Of a DNA stretch of 64,000 bases, positions 4,905 to 50,296 are shown one piece after another (the first letter of the stretch is position 1; the number at the start of each line of letters is the position of its first letter). This DNA is from Malacoraja senta (lineage: Eukaryota), in NCBI GenBank assembly GCA_038087875.1, contig CM075993.1, forward strand, positions 10,604,001 through 10,668,000, given 5' to 3'. A program made the position numbers and the translations under genes. The notes under the pieces were generated by a model. That model was not told the origin of the DNA. It saw only the letters and a program-made list of their open reading frames with translations, and ran no database searches.

Positions 4905-7900
4905 CTGCAAATGGGGAGAAAAAACACCAATTGGCACTTCCAAAAATAGAACATTAAAAATGTTCAAGTATCTTTGCTTAGTGTTTCATACCCAAAAAAA
5001 CAAATAATCTGACCAATGAACTGTATAGATCAACAATAATTAAAAGTAGAAACAATACACTGGAAACACTCACATCCAGTAACTTGTGTGGAAAGAAAAA
5101 TGGTTAATGTAGCAAGTCAGATACCCAGTAATGTTAACTGTTTCTCTCACTATAGACACTGACTGACCTGCTGAATGTTTCCAGATTTTGCTTTTATTCA
5201 CACAAACAAATAATTTCCCTTTAAATTTTGATCCATATGCCCCATTTGATCTAAGGGCTTTTCAGCAAATATACTTTTGAAATGTGACAGCTAATTTGCA
5301 CCATGTCCTCACAAATAGCAAATCAAATAATCTTTTATTGATGGTGGATAATGAGATAAATGTTGGCCGAGATGTAGCAAGGTACATCGTCATCACATTG
5401 TGTAATGGATCTTTTACACCCACATGGGTCAGCTACCAGGGGCTCATTTAACATCCTATTGGGAAGGTGGCATATCACCATAATGGACCACTTGCTCATC
5501 GATGTACTGGATTGCCTGCCTAGACTTTGGTGCTCAGATACTCTCGGCATAATGCAACGTATGGTTCAAGTTGTGGTTAGCCAAGATAAGCAAATTAATA
5601 AGAGTCAGGTGCAACCAGTGGTCAAATGCTGGAAGATTCAGCTCTCATCGGTGAGAAAGAGGAAAAGGTAAAAGGTAGGTTCTCACTTACAATTCATCTT
5701 TTTAGCACACACACGATTCACAAGACCAAGAACCTTGGTCGGCATGGCAATGGAGTTGCTGCCTTACAGGGCCAGAGACCCGGGTTCGATCCCAATTACA
5801 GGTGATATCTATACAAAGTTTGTACGTTCTCCCTGTGACCTGTGTGGGTTTTCCCCGGGTGCTCTGGTTTCCTCCACTCCAGACATACGTTTGTAGGCTG
5901 ATTGGTTTGGTTAAATTGTACATTTTTCTAGTGTGTAAAACAGTGCTAGTGTATGGGGTGATCACTGGTCGGCATGGACTCAGTAGGCAGAAGGGCCTGT
6001 TTCCACACTGTAACTCAACTAAACCATGTTAGTCAGAGCCAGGATTTACCCAATCAGTAAAAAAACTAGTCTCTTAAATCAAAATACCCAATTTGCAAGG
6101 AAAATAATTGCAGATTCCGTAAATCAGACAGAACTTGTAGACAGAAATAGAATTAATATTTCAGGTCGACCACTTTTTATTAGATCTGGCTTTTCATGAA
6201 CACTGTTGAGTTTTGATGAAAGGTCATCAAATGTTTCATCCACAAGTATTGGCCAACGTTGAGCATTTCCAGTATTATCTGTGTTTAGATCAGATTTCAG
6301 CCATCTGCACCATTTGGCTCACAATTAACCTCGATTTAATCCCACACATAAAAACCACAAGATCAAGTACGGAATACATCTGCATTAAATACAACACAAC
6401 CACACAAACCTGACCAGATTACATAGATTATCACCCTAAATGTAATATTAAGTTCATTCAATTTTTCCTGCAGTACTTTAAATTCTAGCACCTTAAAAAC
6501 ATTTAGTATTGCAAAAAAAAACAATGCAAGGCATTGAATAAACATTTTGTACCTGCATCAACAATTACATTTAAAGTCAAAACACGTTCCTTTTGCTCAG
6601 ACATGTTTGTAGTTTTAAAAAAAATTAAGTGCCATTTTTTAAATGAAATCTATAGAAACAGTAAAGTTAATCAAAAATAAGGACAGCAATAATTACTATT
6701 TTATGTACTAAATATTAAAACCAAAAAGGCCTTTAACAATGTTACATTTTCAGGGTGCCTATTGCTAGACAACTTGTTCCAACATACCCGAAAGCACATT
6801 TTTAATCCAAGACCAACAAATGCTCATCTATCTGGGTTTCACTTTACAATTAAGTGGACTTTAAATAATTAGGTAAAAGCATCCACTATATCAGTAATGA
6901 TAAGTAGTTAAAATTATGCAAGTATATTTTAGGTGCCTCATTGCACTAATTTGAGAACATTTATCACCATCTCATTCCTATGTCAATGTTAATGTGGCCA
7001 CTCTTGCTTGTTCAAAAAAAATCCAGATCTAATGTGCATGCAGCATCAATAAATTATACATACTTGCAAAGTGTTCCCTATCTGTGAAATGCAGTACAGA
7101 AAAAGCTTGCAAGTAGAAAGACCAAGAACTGCTTTCTGTAATATTGTCCAGGGCCAGCTGTTCAAATGGAGATTACACAAACACTTTACCAGGACCAAGG
7201 CTCATCTGTTCAGACCTACTGTCACCTCATCTTTAGTTACAAGAGGGAGGTATAATAGGAGACGGCAAAATGTTTAGGGAAGGACCCAAAAAAGCTTTTA
7301 TTTTCTTATCGTTATCTAGAATTATCTAAAATTATGGGTCTTCCATACGAGGTGAGGGGGGAATCCTTCCTAGAGATGAGGAGGGAATGGAACCGTGGTC
7401 GCTTTCAGGAAGGAGGGCTCAGATAGGGTAGATAGCAAGAAACTTCTCCCCATGGAAGCGGTGTCTTGGAACGGGTTAGTTTAAGAGTTTAATGGGGATC
7501 TCAGAAAGAATCTTAGCACTCAATGAGTGGCTGGAATATGCCCAAGTTGGCAGAAGGAGGAGGCACTCATAATATTTAAAAAAACATCTGGACGACCATT
7601 TGCCTGGCCAAGGCAGAGTAGGCTGCAGATCAAGTGCTGGTAAATGGGATTCGTATAGACAGGCAGCGTCGTCACATAGACATGGTGGGTCAAAGTTCTG
7701 TGCAGTATGCCAACATTAAGAAGCCAATGCTAGAGATTAGTTAAAATTAAAATAAAAAATAAGGAGGAAATGTACAGACCCTAAACAGCCAGTACCCCAG
7801 AACTCCATTAGGTTGAAGATAGACACAAAATGCTGGAGTAACTGGCCTGAATGTGTAGAGCTAGACTGGATGAGCACTGCACCTGATAGCCAAGACCAAG

Positions 7901-11672: not shown

Positions 11673-12212
11673 CTGTGGTGGAGAGAACATGTTAGAAACT
11701 GGATTACTTTCACCAGACACTACAGTATTTTCAACTCTGCCATTTATCAAAGGATATTTTGTGCTCAATATCACAGCTAGGTTCAAGAAGTTAATTATGC
11801 AACGAGTCATGCTGCACAAATAGACAAATTCCCACTGAAACACAGCAAGAAACTGGATGTGATCCATTGATTATATCTAATCAGGTACCAGAATTATTCA
11901 TGCAACTATAGCATAAAGTCAAATGGTGGCCCAGAAATCTTGGTTAGCAAAATCAGACTAAAACACATTGTTCAAGATTTAGTGCAATGGGCCAAGCTCT
12001 TAATTCCTCAGTCAGATTGTTACATATCAGAGCTTCACATCTAACAGATACATGATGCTAGAATATTTCCATCATCATTCTCAGCAAAGATACTAGAGGA
12101 GCAAGATAAACCACTCGACGAAAAAGACGTAGTACGGTCATGGGCATTTTTATTCGCGCCATTTTGAGAATCGAATATATGAGTTTTTTTATTTTTTAAA
12201 TGGGCTTCTGTC

Positions 12213-12340
12213 ATGGCGTCCACATCTACCAGCGTAGCGAGCCGTTCTGCTATAGTGCTCAAATCGCCAATGTAAGCGATTCGAGCACTTTATAGCAGTC
12301 TTTCTTCAGGTTCCCCACTAAAGATAAGAAAACAATTATA
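12213..12340 (+). pseudogene. Frameshifted THAP zinc-finger N-terminus of a P-type transposase
   Basis: ATG at 12213; joining frames gives MASTSTSVAS(R/C)SAI/CSNRQCKRFEHFIA/SFFRFPTKDKK, resembling the THAP pattern C-x-A-x-x-C-x-N...SFFRFP-x-x-D. Confidence 0.6.
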
Positions 12341-12559
12341 ACTTTGTCTTGAGGCCGATCTCTTCCGATAGTTCAGATCGCGGAGCCGGGGGTCACCAGA
12401 AGAATTGCTCTGATCGCTGGCCCGCGGACTATAACATCTTGAATCCCTCCGGTGTGCGGAGCTTCTAGTCGCGGGGGCAGCGTGCACTTTCCCTCGCGGA
12501 GTCTGGGATTCCTCGCCAGAGAAAAGCTCCGACCGCCAGCCCGCGGAGATTGAGAGGGG

Positions 12560-12935
12560 ATCTTATAGAAACATACAAAATTCTTATGGGGTTGGACAGG
12601 CTTGATGCAGAAAGATTGTTCCTGATGTTGGGGAAGTCCAGAACAAGGGGTCACAGTTTAAGGATAAAGGGGAATCTTTTAGGACTGAGATGAGAAAAAC
12701 ATTTTTTACACAGAGTGTGGTGAATCTGTGGAATTCTCTGCCACAGAATGTAGTTGAGGCCAGTTCATTGGCTATATTTAAGAGGGAGTTAGATGTGGCC
12801 CTTGTGGCTAAAGGGATCAGGGGGTATGGAGAGAAAGCAGGTACGGGATACCGAGTTGGATGATCAGCCATGATCATATTGAATGGCCGAAGAGCCGAAT
12901 GGCCTACTCCTGCACCTATTTTCTATGTATCTATG
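12560..12935 (+). mobile_element. CR1 LINE 3' fragment nested in the P element
   Basis: RTRGHSLRI-type C-terminal coding remnant and 3' UTR ending TTCTATGTATCTATG. Confidence 0.85.
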
Positions 12936-13301
12936 TATAACATCATGAAGCCCCAGCAGTGGCGGTCCCGAATCGGCTTGTGTTTAAGCCGGTTCGAAAT
13001 AGTGTTTAAAATACATGATAAATGGTGTTAAATATACACAATGTACACGGATCAGTGGTGTTTGAAATACATGATAAATGGAGTTATAGTGAACAACGAC
13101 ATGCCACGAGGAGCACACATTAAAGCCTTAATTTCCTTCCCAATGTATGATGACTAACATATATAATTCTATTCTTATGATCCTGATAATGTATTATATT
13201 ATATGACATTTTTTGGTACATGAGCAAGTTATAGAAAGTCTTCTTTTATAAACCATTGAAAGTCTTCTTTTATAGATCTAGACTAAGCACAATAATAAAG
13301 G

Positions 13302-13377
13302 TAGACAAAAATACTGGAGAATTTCTCCAGCATTTTTGTCTACCTTCGATTTTCCAGCATCTGCAGTTCCTTCTTAA
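13302..13377. mobile_element. Tiny Penelope-terminus fold-back nested in the P element
   Basis: Short palindrome; TSD ACAATAATAAAGG at 13289-13301 and 13378-13390. Confidence 0.75.
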
Positions 13378-13478
13378 ACAATAATAAAGGTATCAATTTT
13401 TACACTGCTGTACTTTTTTGGTTTTGTTCTTGTTGTAAGGCATGCATGGTATTGTAAGCTCTTCTACATTTAAGATAA

Positions 13479-13510
13479 ATCAAGTCAAGTCAAGTCAAGT
13501 CAAGTCAAGT
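13479..13510. repeat. (TCAAG)n tail of a minus-strand Rex1-type 3' end
   Basis: Six TCAAG units followed by TTTATTGTCATGTGTCCC, the same sequence as at 39378 onward. Confidence 0.8.
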
Positions 13511-14932
13511 GAGTTTATTGTCATGTGTCCCAGATAGGACAATGAAATTCTTGCTTTGCTTCAGCACAACAGAATATAGTAGGCATGAATACAGAATTTA
13601 TTCAATAGGCATAAATTGACCGATTAGAGGAAAAATGCATCTTCAATATACATGTCCCTCCCCACCCCTGAAAACAATTGCATTTAAGTGACATATCATC
13701 CATTCTGCAGTTATGTAGTTATAATCAGATTTGTTCTTATAAGTTAATTCTATATGATATTTTACTGTAATTTCAGATGTTGACAGTGGGTCCAGAATAC
13801 TCGTTGATAAGATCTCCTATAGCAAACTACGGAGTACTTGTCAAAGAACTGCCGTCTTTGTTCTGAACACCCTGTATATCTCACACATAAAACAATAAAT
13901 TATGTAATCTTACCATAAATGACAGAAATAAAAAGTGTTATCCTTGTTTATGAATTTTGTTGTAGAATGATTTAAAATTGAGTGGATTGATGCAATATAC
14001 TGCTAACCCACAAATGTTTAGTAATGAGATATTCACATTTAAAAATTCACTCGGAGCTCGGGTGGCTGACAGCGGCCGCCCGAACCGCACAGCGGAGCCG
14101 CAGCTAGACCCGGGGCTCACAGGTGACTTGGGAACTGCAGCTAGTCCTGGAGGGTCCTGGCCCCTATGCAAAAAAGGCTGCGGACCTCTGGACTAAACCA
14201 AACCCTCGATCCTGTCCTGCCATCCTTTTAAATAAAAATTTGCAACTGAAATGGTGGTGCGTCTTCATTGCCGGGAAATACGGTGACTCATTTCCCTCAA
14301 ATATATGTCAGATTGTCCTCAATTATATGTTAAATTAAAAACTAAACTATGGTAGCAATGCACAGTATTCATGTTTAAAGCTCGCACTTCTGCATCAATG
14401 TAGGTATGTATACACTACATTTCTTTACACTAATATAGAATGAAAGAATATCTTGGCTTGTGTTCATTATTTTATTCACTATATTAGGATTTTGGAAAGA
14501 GGTTGAATGAAAGAAAGAAAAAGGTTCAATAAAGAGGAGAGCACAAGAAAGAAACTAGAGAAATACATATATGTGTGTTATATAATTATATACATCAATA
14601 TCACATATATATACATATACATATACAATACACAATACATATACATATATATGATCCATGAGGAACTTTGAAATCTATTATCTCTATCTTGCCTCTCACA
14701 CACAGAAACACACACATACCGTTCCCCCACAACACTGATTAAACCAAAGATAATGCATATGGTCCAGAGACCTTTCATTGCGCATTGCTGCTCATTTTAT
14801 ACGCTTTCCCTTTAAATTTTTTTTTATTTTTTTTAAGAAGCACCTTATTTATTATAAACAAAGATCATAATGGTCTATCATAGAAGGCTAAAATAGACCA
14901 AGATAAACTGCAAAATTCAATGGACTGATGTG

Positions 14933-14973
14933 GATTAAACCAAAGATACTCATCTAGTATCTTTGGATTAAAC
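14933..14973. mobile_element. P-type excision footprint
   Basis: GATTAAAC [CAAAGATACTCATCTAGTATCTTTG] GATTAAAC: an 8-bp direct repeat around fused stubs of both TIRs of the host element. Confidence 0.8.
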
Positions 14974-15276
14974 TGCGAGAGGCATAACGGAGATCGGGGT
15001 CTTATTCCTAAAATGGCGGCAGTGACGTTCCGTAACATTCCGATCCATACTGCACGTCAGTCCATTGGATTTCGTAGGAGTGGTCTATCTTGCTCCTCTA
15101 GTATCTTTGATTCTCAGTAAAATACAATAAATTTATTTTTACTTTTTTTTTTTTTTAACTGGAGTGGGGGGGGGGGGGGGGGGGGTGGTCAAAAGAGATA
15201 AATACCACATCTATACAATCTTGGCAAGAGTAAAGAACTCAAAGTTCCACATTGAGACCATCACTAAGCTTTTCTT

Positions 15277-15498
15277 GTGGAGGAACCGCAGATGCTGGTT
15301 CACCCTGCAGATAGACACGAAGTGCTGGAGTAACCCAGCAGGTCAGGCAGCATCTCTGGAGAAAGGGAACAGGTGACGTTTCGGGTCGAGACCTTTCTTC
15401 AGACAGTAGTGAAGGGTCTCAACCCGAAACGTCACCTATTCCTTTTCTCTAGAGATGGTGCCTGACCCACTGAGTTACTCCAGCATTTTGTGTCTATC
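15277..15498. mobile_element. Penelope-terminus fold-back element
   Basis: Inverted arms with a minus-strand hammerhead core CTGAAGAAAGGTCTCGACCCGAAACGTC; flanked by CTAAGCTT repeats. Confidence 0.8.
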
Positions 15499-16465
15499 TA
15501 AGCTTATCATTGGCAAAGTTGAGAAAAAAGGCATTGAGAATGTTGCAGAACAAAATAACATGGCTTCAAATTCAAGAGAATATTTGTGAAATAGGTTATT
15601 CTTTTATTTTTGTTTTACAAGTTTCAATATGCCATAATTTAAAATAAAGTTGAAGAATTACAGGATAAATGGGTAGTGCAGTTAAGCACAAACACTTAAT
15701 TAATATGTTAGCAGACACCATAGCCAGAAAGTATGTCACACTAATATCAGATTTCAATTGTGCTATTACCAAGTACGTTTCAAGCAATGTTTTCAAGTTA
15801 GATGGTGAGCTGGCAGTTCATATTTCTACCCATTCAAACTGTCTACTTTGCTGAGTATTTCCAGTATTCTCTTTTCAAGTTCAAGTCAAGTTCAAGTTAC
15901 ATTTATTGTCACATGCACCAACTGGTACAGTGAGATTTGAGTTACCACAGCCATACGAAAAAAACCACAATACACGATAGAGTTTAACATGAACATCCCC
16001 ACACAGCGGAATCAACGTTCCCACTGTGAGGGAAGGCAATAAAGTTCAGTCACCTTCCTCATTTGTTTAGATAAAGTGACACAGTTAGAGTGAGGTAAAA
16101 TACATAGCAGGAAACCGTCTGATTGTGATGAAAAGTATCCGATTAAATAAAAAGTGGCGATACATGCAATTTTTCAACAAGATGTAGGAATTCCTGGCTA
16201 AGAAATGATTTCTTGGCCACAACTACTCCTATTCAAGGGGGGGGGGGGGGGGGGATGATCTACCTTCCAAAAACTGCAATGTGATGAAGGCAGTGCCACA
16301 TTGTCGTCAGTCGGGAATTGGCAGGATTTGAGTCAAAGACAATGAAAGAATGGTAATATACTTCCAAGACAGGATGACAATTTTGTTCAGAATTTGGCCC
16401 TTTTGGTCAGGATTCAAGATGGTGGCGACAGACACAGGTGAGGTAAGGACAGCTGGTTAGATCCC

Positions 16466-34395: not shown

Positions 34396-35827
34396 AGCAC
34401 TCCTCGGACAACATCGCCCCGCTGTCTTGGCCGTTGGGAACTCCTCGCCACCGCCTCCCTCCTCCGCCAGCCAACAGCAAGGTGCGGGGCCGAGCGGTGC
34501 AGCTCAGAGATCCTATAGCTATAAGATCTTTGGTGCAGCTGCTTCAGACGAGTCGAAGCGAATGACGGGCTTCGCAGAGCGGCAGCAGCACCAGCGGCCG
34601 CGGCTCCATCTGCTCCTCCTCCCGCCCCCCCGCCCGCCCTGATTAGGGCATCTGCTTGTAAACCCGCTAACGGGCTTTCAAAACAAACCCTCCTGCACGC
34701 CGAGGCCGGGAGTAGGGAGGGAGGGGGAGGCCTCGGCGTGCGGGAGGGTTTGTTTCGAAAGCGGTTATCGCCGTTAGCAGATTTACAAGCAGAGGCCCTT
34801 ATCAGGGCGGGCGGAGGAGCAGATGGAGCCGCCGCTGCCGCTGTGCAGGGCCTGTCGTTCGCTCCGACCCTTCGTCACCCTGCACCTAGTATCTTTCCCA
34901 CGCAATACAGCCCTCACCGCCGACACAAAACGTCGCGTTCCTTTTCTCCAGAGATGCTGCCTGACCCGCGGAGTTACTCCATTTTTTTGTGTCTATCTTC
35001 GGTACAAACCAGTATCTGGTTGCCAAGCCGGGCAAAATGACTCGGTGTTTAGGTTGCCCGGCGGCGCTTTGAGTGGTCAGTGGCACCTGGGCAACCTCTA
35101 ATTTCAAGCCCTGCATTCCCTCCACAAATGCTGTCGGATGCATAATGTTACTTCAGCACTTTACATTTTTATACATATTGGTTTAGTATGTAGCAAGGAA
35201 ATATGCCTTTCAGCCTGTTGATTCTATGCTGACCATCAATCATTCATGTACATTAATCCTACATTAACACTTTTTAAATTCTCCCTACTCTCAACAACTT
35301 CAGCCAGATTCCAAAACCCACCCAAACTAGGGGCAATTTAACAAATCCAATTAACCTACCAACTTACATGACTGGACTGGAAACTGGAGCACCCAGAGGA
35401 AACTTACAATCACAGATAATGTCCACACATTAGGCACCCATGGTTAGTGGTTTCCAGCAATGTGAGGCAGCAGCTCGACTAGCTTTAAGCCATGCATCTT
35501 TTTCTTCAGTAATAGATCGACCTTTCCTATCAAAAATAGATCCACCAGCGGGACCACAAAAGAGCAGCATAGTTTACAAGAACAATTTGCATCGAAGTGA
35601 AATGAAATAATGATTCAAATGAAATAATTATTTACAATGGAAATAGGCAGGCTCAGATTTTCTTGGAAATTCCAAAGTAACCAGACACAAATCTCTTTAC
35701 ACTTCAGTCAATTGATTTACATTAGTTTTTACACTAAAACATTTCCAACATGCTATCAACATGTGTGGCTTCTGAAACAAAATTGAGGGCGGCACAGTGG
35801 TAGAGACCCGGATTCAATCCCGACTAC

Positions 35828-49440: not shown

Positions 49441-49646
49441 TAAAGGAGGAACTGCAGATGCTGGAAAATCGAAGGTACACAAAAATGCTGGAGAAACTCA
49501 GCGGGTGCAGCAGCATCTATGGAGCGAAGGAAACAGATAACGTTTCGGGCCGAAACCCTTCTTTCGGCCCGAAACGTTATCTGTTTCCTTCGCTCCATAG
49601 ATGCTGCTGCACCCACTGAGTTTCTCCAGCATTTTTGTGTACCTTC
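49441..49646. mobile_element. Penelope-terminus fold-back element
   Basis: About 85-bp near-perfect inverted repeat centred near 49558; TSD AATAATAGTTT (up to 14 bp). Confidence 0.85.
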
Positions 49647-50296
49647 AATAATAGTTTATTGTACAGTGATATGCTTTGTTTTGCATACAACTCAGTAAAA
49701 TCATACAGCAGACCTCACCCTAGGCAGTACACAAGAGCCGGCACATTTCTGGCGACAACAAAGTTACAAAAGTTCACCGAACTGAATTATATAGGCTGAT
49801 CGCTCCTGCATCGGGGTGGATGTCAGCTCCCCGCGCTAGACGAACCTTCTGCGACTGGAGCTTCCCGACATCAGTCTCCATCTGAGACGGCGAGCTCCGC
49901 GATGTTGAAATCTGCAGGACGCGGTTGGAGCGTCGATCCCAAGCAAAGGATCGACTCCGATGGTAAGACCACGGGCCCCGTGGTGGGACACAAAGTCAGT
50001 CCCGAGCAAGGTCTCCAGCTCCATGATGTTAGGCTGCAGAGCAACCGGATATATGATCCGGAAAACAATCGCATTTCCGACAAGATAAGAGATGGAAAAA
50101 GTTTCCCCCGACCCCCTCCCCCACATGAAACAAACCAGTGAACATTAACACAAACTTTTAAAACACTAAAAATAACAATAAAAGACAAACAGACTGTTGG
50201 GCGAGGCTGCCATTGTGCGGCGCCTCCTGGTCATATTCACAAGTGGACATACAAATAAATTAAAACAATTTCTTTATGGCTATGAATCTAACAGTA

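Follow-up and report, generated by a model that had tools for sequence, protein, structure and literature searches.

A probable excision footprint of a P-superfamily transposon inside a member of its own family in the skate Malacoraja senta

Introduction

The closest described counterparts of the locus reported here are the P elements of Drosophila, whose transposase has a long staggered cut as its hallmark: one strand is cut 17 nt inside the terminal inverted repeat (TIR) (PMC7776569). Among the repair junctions of Drosophila P{wa}, a class listed in Tables 1 and 2 of PMC5466332 has the order target-site duplication (TSD), stub, microhomology of 1-3 nt, stub, TSD. TIRs of the P superfamily are about 30 bp long (PMC3698922), and the ends of the Drosophila P element show CA...TG termini (PMC5466332).

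A second point of reference is the zebrafish pair Pdre2/zfTHAP9, which shares with the family described below a vertebrate P-type transposase, a THAP domain and an 8-bp TSD (PMC10983969). With a Drosophila P reporter in S2 cells, zfTHAP9 produced excision accompanied by larger deletions of the flanks, and integration was not detected (PMC10983969). A 17-nt stub was not found in the text examined, and junction figures S6-S7 might show stubs. No mapping of the cut position of vertebrate P/THAP9 enzymes was found in the portions of the literature examined.

Elements of the hAT superfamily also produce 8-bp TSDs, so that a TSD of this length does not by itself separate P from hAT. Their excision is unlike that of P elements: in the case of TcBuster, the flanks are hairpinned and flank-derived bases are left (PMC3499496).

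Here we describe a 64,000-nt stretch of the Malacoraja senta genome (contig CM075993.1 of assembly GCA_038087875.1), hereafter the window, in which a 33-bp insertion is probably the footprint left on excision by a P-superfamily transposon nested in a member of its own family.

Results

The scar and its host element

The scar lies within a 3,025-bp terminal-inverted-repeat element that occupies positions 12085-15109 and is flanked by a perfect 8-bp TSD. The features of this host element are listed below.

12077..12084, + strand: left TSD of the host, ATTCTCAG, 8 bp, identical to 15110-15117
12085..12116, + strand: left TIR of the host, 31/32 identical to the right TIR, with similarity extending to about 40 nt
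12213..12331, + strand: decayed first THAP zinc finger exon in three frameshifted pieces, located by tblastn
12551..12937, no strand assigned: dispersed repeat within the host, probably a LINE fragment, with 67-80% blastn matches elsewhere in the window
13775..13870, + strand: remnant of the second THAP exon, preceded by TTTCAG, which resembles a splice acceptor, and interrupted by four stop codons
14737..14752, + strand: third GATTAAAC with a TIR-like tip, a 16-bp exact repeat of 14933-14948
14880..14932, + strand: degenerate inverted copy of the right terminal region of the host, found by local alignment
15078..15109, - strand: right TIR of the host, the top depth bin in the runs of all four relatives
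15110..15117, + strand: right TSD of the host, ATTCTCAG, 8 bp

CA...TG termini are a general rule in the P superfamily, and the host TIR, which begins CAAAG, agrees with this rule and with a TIR length of around 30 bp. P-superfamily TSDs measure 7-9 bp (8 bp in P proper); ATTCTCAG is found twice, and the two scars described in this work also have repeats of 8 bp. A separate observation is that the word CGCCATTTT, which we take to resemble a YY1 site, occupies mirror positions within both host ends (12157-12166 and 15010-15018). Elsewhere in the window, a common short repeat forms head-to-head inverted pairs at 15309-15499 and 49468-49649, with arms of 88-89 nt and a gap of 6-13 nt.

The scar is found 136 bp inward of the right end of the host. 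It consists of a 25-bp core, CAAAGATACTCATCTAGTATCTTTG (14941-14965), between two copies of GATTAAAC (14933-14940 and 14966-14973), and the motif read by the first-pass annotation is confirmed letter for letter.

14933..14940, + strand: left TSD of the scar, GATTAAAC, present as a single copy in sister elements
14941..14950, + strand: left TIR stub, 10 nt, exact
14949..14965, + strand: right TIR stub, 13 nt exact, 15 nt without the overlap (one mismatch) and 17 nt including the CT overlap
14966..14973, + strand: right TSD of the scar, GATTAAAC

The left part of the core matches exactly the first 10 nt of the left host TIR, and the right part matches the last 17 nt of the right host TIR with one mismatch, overlapping the left part at CT; if no mismatch is allowed, the right match is 13 nt long. 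The core is made solely of two TIR tips, neither of which exceeds 17 nt (10 and 13-17 nt).

The window was scanned without assumptions on the TIR for 8-bp direct repeats enclosing a core of 18-80 bp with inverted tips. The stretch 14933-14973 was the sole site detected, and 40 shuffles yielded one match in total (mean 0.025). A scan guided by the tips gave two real matches, compared with shuffle means of 0, 0 and 0.17 when 0, 1 and 2 TSD mismatches were allowed (30 shuffles each); an earlier, looser version had given a match in 1 of 60 shuffles. The motif at 14933-14973 is not due to chance. A 9-mer found at 4968-4976 is not continued by TIR sequence.

A second scar in the window

The other match of the tip-guided scan, on which the first-pass annotation was silent, has the following location:

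34497..34540, + strand: second scar, of the same form as the first

Its sequence, GTGCAGCT-CAGAGATCCTATAGCTATAAGATCTTTG-GTGCAGCT, comprises a 28-bp core made of two sister-type tips within a perfect 8-bp TSD. In its tip, 11 of 14 nt are those of the host tip, and similar sister tips occur among the loose ends of relatives' contigs. The arms are symmetric, 14-16 nt each, with the tip known to 14 nt only. The assumption-free scan missed this site as it allows just one mismatch across the first 9 nt.

Tip pairs with matching 8-bp repeats have lengths of 25, 28, 221 and 3,025 bp in the window, and none falls between 29 and 220 bp. This gap lends weak support to a ceiling on stub length. Judged from the two scars, the stubs measure at least 13-15 nt and do not exceed 17 nt, which with n = 2 is not a measured ceiling.

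Two further observations concern the same region. The second scar adjoins an imperfect palindrome of 317 bp (34552-34868), and CTAGTATCTTTC, at 34886-34897, matches 11 of the last 12 nt of the right host TIR and has no clear TSD; it is possibly a one-sided remnant or a chance match.

An empty site in sister copies

In 20 of the 21 listed runs, which represent eight organisms, 25-42% of the words of 13600-15135 were present. No run reached half, which indicates that the runs derive from relatives or contain related copies. Contigs were compared in four of the 21 (X15, X2, X3 and X8), from four related organisms. Every depth bin over the host showed many times the depth of a single contig in these four runs, and the host is therefore a member of a high-copy family in the relatives. 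The segment 14050-14284, which is GC-richer and has a high depth of its own, with many loose ends at 14284 in run X8, is likely a separate nested DNA element.

At the scar, at least ten contigs of sister copies skip 33 bp (nine contigs) or 34 bp (one contig), a length that corresponds to the core plus one repeat. Among those listed, four belong to X15 and two each to X2, X3 and X8; in most of them the bases between the joined flanks are not known. Two further X3 contigs, also among those listed, read through the junction with a single GATTAAAC. Because sister copies carry one GATTAAAC, the motif is an insertion and not a fixed repeat. Comparison of sibling copies had been put forward by the first-pass annotation as a check, and its outcome is that an empty-site variant with one GATTAAAC exists and that the motif is not carried by every member of the family. 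The scar thus combines two retained TSDs with a one-copy empty site, the latter observed among paralogues in the four relatives.

In X3, one contig that covers 14855-15033 is, on balance, only 8 letters short and possibly contains a filled site. An intact element at the scar site was not seen in any relative among the contigs listed for the four runs.

Assignment of the family to the P lineage

The identity of the family was examined through its protein remnants. A six-frame Pfam scan gave one weak match, to THAP (PF05485) at about 13763-13870, with an E value of 0.02-0.05, below the cut-off. Over 32 aa, the second THAP exon (13775-13870) is 62-75% identical to THAP proteins, with tblastn E values of 6e-11 to 5e-8, and the first base of all four of its stop codons is C in most of the relatives' depth. 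The pieces of the first THAP exon (12213-12331) are individually weak (E values of 0.03-0.13) and co-linear with the N-termini of proteins P0010 and P0021.

A phmmer search against 1.84 billion proteins produced 14 matches, 13 of them through the THAP exon; P0011, which contains fibronectin repeats, was aligned to another part of the query and was discarded as spurious. P0010 contains PF12017 above the cut-off; P0013 is a complete P-type transposase. P0010 is in turn linked to P0039-P0041, with 68-87% identity over 24-29% of its length, and the latter carry PF12017, PF21787, PF21788 and PF21789 (P HTH, RNase H, GTP-binding). A skate protein, P0007, has THAP in common with these proteins: it is 68% identical to P0010, and 31 of 36 residues coincide with the start of P0039. 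The close named proteins include ones from Amblyraja and Leucoraja. As a side observation, the Leucoraja gene models P0007, P0036 and P0037 show the THAP region of the family fused to TRIM-like or other host exons, possibly as a result of exon capture or as annotation artefacts.

No hAT domain (dimerisation or DUF4371-type) follows THAP in any of the 14 phmmer matches, several of which are short and end before such a domain, nor in any of the 10 proteins of the follow-up set linked to P0010. An N-terminal THAP domain of the P-transposase lineage is present in the family, with a Pfam score below the cut-off in the window copy. RNase H with a GTP-binding insertion is found in the linked proteins P0039-P0041, P0038 and P0013, whose own TIRs were not seen. 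No remnant of a catalytic or C-terminal transposase region was found in the window or in the host copy, and assignment to P consequently rests on the THAP lineage together with the TIR and the TSD. What counts against a P identity is that the database names of several matches are of the form '52 kDa repressor ... -like', and we take the 52 kDa repressor to be a hAT-derived gene. The proposal of a P-like rather than hAT family thus appears to hold as judged from protein similarity, with THAP relatives that lead to P transposases and no hAT domain among them.

P0039 gave no loci in viral and prokaryote contigs, so the TIRs of the family are not tied directly to a full transposase. A word-indexed protein search with the 48-aa THAP exon gave no match, and a PDB sequence search gave two, both unrelated. 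An exact 24-mer of the TIR had no match in metagenomes. A gapped TIR pattern was found at four metagenome loci and in one viral contig, and all five were rejected as chance matches with no similarity beyond the pattern.

Target site and the third GATTAAAC

The consensus of loose ends just outside the right TIR starts with GTTTAAAC in X8 (38 contigs, agreement 0.39) and with GTCAAAAC in X15 (33 contigs, agreement 0.41). GATTAAAC is identical to GTTTAAAC at 7 of 8 positions, while two of the window's three TSDs, those of the host and of the second scar, agree with it at only 3 of 8 each. Since GATTAAAC resembles so closely the consensus outside the family ends, local hopping, as suggested by the first-pass annotation, is indistinguishable from ordinary use of a preferred target. 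Nesting is apparently explained by such a preference without local hopping.

The third GATTAAAC, at 14737, is followed by CAAAGATA (14737-14752); the first-pass annotation does not mention it. Contigs in all four runs have CATAG added after 14751, as in sister tips, and one X3 contig joins 14744 straight to the TIR. These 16 bp are likely the trace of an older, shared event in which a sister subfamily used the same 8-mer. The degenerate inverted copy at 14880-14932 has a local alignment score of 44, reached by none of 200 shuffles, and includes a 20-nt core with 90% identity. About 190 bp that follow the third GATTAAAC, up to 14932, end in this inverted copy of the right end and are common to the relatives' copies. 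The possibility that 14745-14965 is a single 221-bp element was considered and rejected, as sister copies lack only its last 33 bp.

Discussion

A probable P-type excision footprint

The scar can be accounted for by a short series of events. A copy of the family would have inserted at GATTAAAC, near the apparent preferred target, thereby duplicating the 8-mer. The transposase of the inserted copy would then have cut the ends with a long stagger, leaving single-stranded TIR tips on both flanks, and both tips would have been fused by end joining. If the overhangs were 17 nt long, the simplest route would start with pairing between the terminal AG-3' of one overhang and the only CT in the other, followed by trimming of a 7-nt flap and filling of the gaps; one substitution would have arisen later or during repair. 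The scar would finally have become fixed in the germ line.

The likeness to Drosophila P footprints includes retention of both 8-bp TSDs, two TIR stubs no longer than 17 nt, a microhomology of 1-3 nt or a short filler, and the joining of a full-length stub to a shortened one, as reported for the junctions of PMC5466332. However, the footprints of Drosophila assays differ from the skate scar, which is natural and fixed in the germ line; its TIR sequence is unrelated, and its cut position is deduced from the junction. The apparent target consensus is also different, near GTTTAAAC in the skate family and GTCCGGAC in the Drosophila P element.

The likeness to hAT elements is limited to the 8-bp TSD and to the target motif, GTTTAAAC being the target described for the hAT element hobo (PMC2577343). 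On the side of the differences, the THAP of the host links to P domains and the core of the scar is TIR-derived, instead of the flank-derived bases without TIR stubs that characterize a hAT footprint.

The first-pass annotation had gone one step further, reading the core as a match to the exact 17-nt cut of the P transposase. Insertion into a family member, a P host and the form of the junction withstand the analysis, and P-type excision is likely. The exact position of the cut is not established, as other joins fit and only two scars are at hand. The core can be built equally well as 10 + 15 nt joined bluntly, with the same mismatch, or as 10 + 13 nt with a CA filler and no mismatch. The value of 17 depends on one mismatch and a 2-nt overlap, and is not unique because these other joins fit. 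With 17-nt overhangs, 11 microhomology joins are possible, and the 10/17 join belongs to the only two in which a terminal base takes part. If joins may lie at any point within the first 40 nt of either end, 11 of 50 microhomology joins still leave both stubs at 17 nt or less. We infer an overhang of at least 13-15 nt, into which 17 fits without being singled out.

Alternative explanations

Another origin to be considered is that abortive gap repair, or a transposase-independent deletion across the TIR stem, left only the tips of the nested copy and that no long overhangs were involved. Retention of both TSDs and both tips, as well as the existence of an empty-site variant, would be equally expected in that case; internally deleted P-like copies are described in zebrafish (PMC7776569), and the 14737 site, where two copies of GATTAAAC lie about 190 bp apart, looks like a longer repair-like product. 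Slippage, however, should favour the longest self-complementary word, and the first junction does not use it: slippage on the host tip via CTAG predicts a 20-bp product, and the core has 25 bp. On the second tip, with the TIR known to 14 nt, slippage via AGATCT predicts 12 bp, and the core has 28 bp, although its central AGCT is compatible with a 4-nt slippage join. Besides, both scars end within 17 nt of both ends, and the window contains no TSD-flanked remnant of 29-220 bp. We regard tip reduction as unlikely. Nearly precise excision of Tn10 offers a parallel, as it leaves, between two TSDs, a short palindrome derived from both ends, in a transposase-independent manner and with a fixed length. 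The skate remnants, in contrast, differ in length from one another, and the first one skips the longest palindromic word of the tip.

Much less credible is the view that the cores of 25-28 bp are ultra-short non-autonomous elements inserted by the transposase of the family. Two of them in 64 kb, each within a perfect 8-bp TSD, would agree with this view, as would the X3 contig that may have a filled site. The two cores are nevertheless unlike in length, junction and tip type, and they are devoid of the inner TIR and subterminal sequence needed for transposase binding in Drosophila P (PMC7776569).

Interpretation of the motif as a subterminal repeat with a fixed structural role, in transposase binding or as a hairpin, is barely tenable in spite of the TIR-like repeats nearby (14737-14752 and 14880-14932) and of a similar 12-mer called a subterminal repeat in zebrafish Pdre2 (PMC10983969), since precisely the core and one 8-mer are absent from sister copies in all four runs, and a similar motif with a different 8-mer is found in unrelated sequence at 34497-34540.

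A second reading of Pdre2

The 12-bp 'subterminal repeats' of Pdre2 read like the TSD-plus-tip junctions of the skate family, with the difference that Pdre2 is described with 13-bp TIRs (PMC10983969). A palindromic TSD with CAA/TTG tips can be recognized in the repeats (T-GTTTAAAC-CAA and TTG-GTTTAAAC-A), which agree with the skate junctions at 14736-14747 and 14963-14974 in 11/12 and 10/12 positions. On the basis of this sequence likeness, the true P ends of Pdre2 may be the inner 'subterminal repeats'. If so, this could explain why zfTHAP9 does not transpose the larger unit. Evidence against such a re-reading is the existence of internally deleted zebrafish copies with repeats and TSDs (PMC7776569).

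Significance

Excision of this kind is already known from Drosophila, and what is likely new is its natural setting in a vertebrate, the skate. Titles and openings of abstracts, searched outside subscription journals and Repbase, contained no mention of natural P footprints in vertebrates or of this family. For an assay of vertebrate P transposition, P0039 and P0040 provide a better start, as they are intact-looking transposases of a lineage with defined ends.

Given two scars in 64 kb and a family with a high copy number in relatives, a skate assembly could yield the length of the overhang, the target consensus and the repair preferences of the germ line. A tentative extension, which we consider possible without favouring it, is that the genomes of skate-like animals preserve fossil scars in large numbers, perhaps thousands, left by a vertebrate P family that was once highly active and cut with a 17-nt stagger of the Drosophila type. 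If this were true, the scars would reveal where a vertebrate P transposase cuts and which end-joining options the germ line chooses, without the need for biochemistry.
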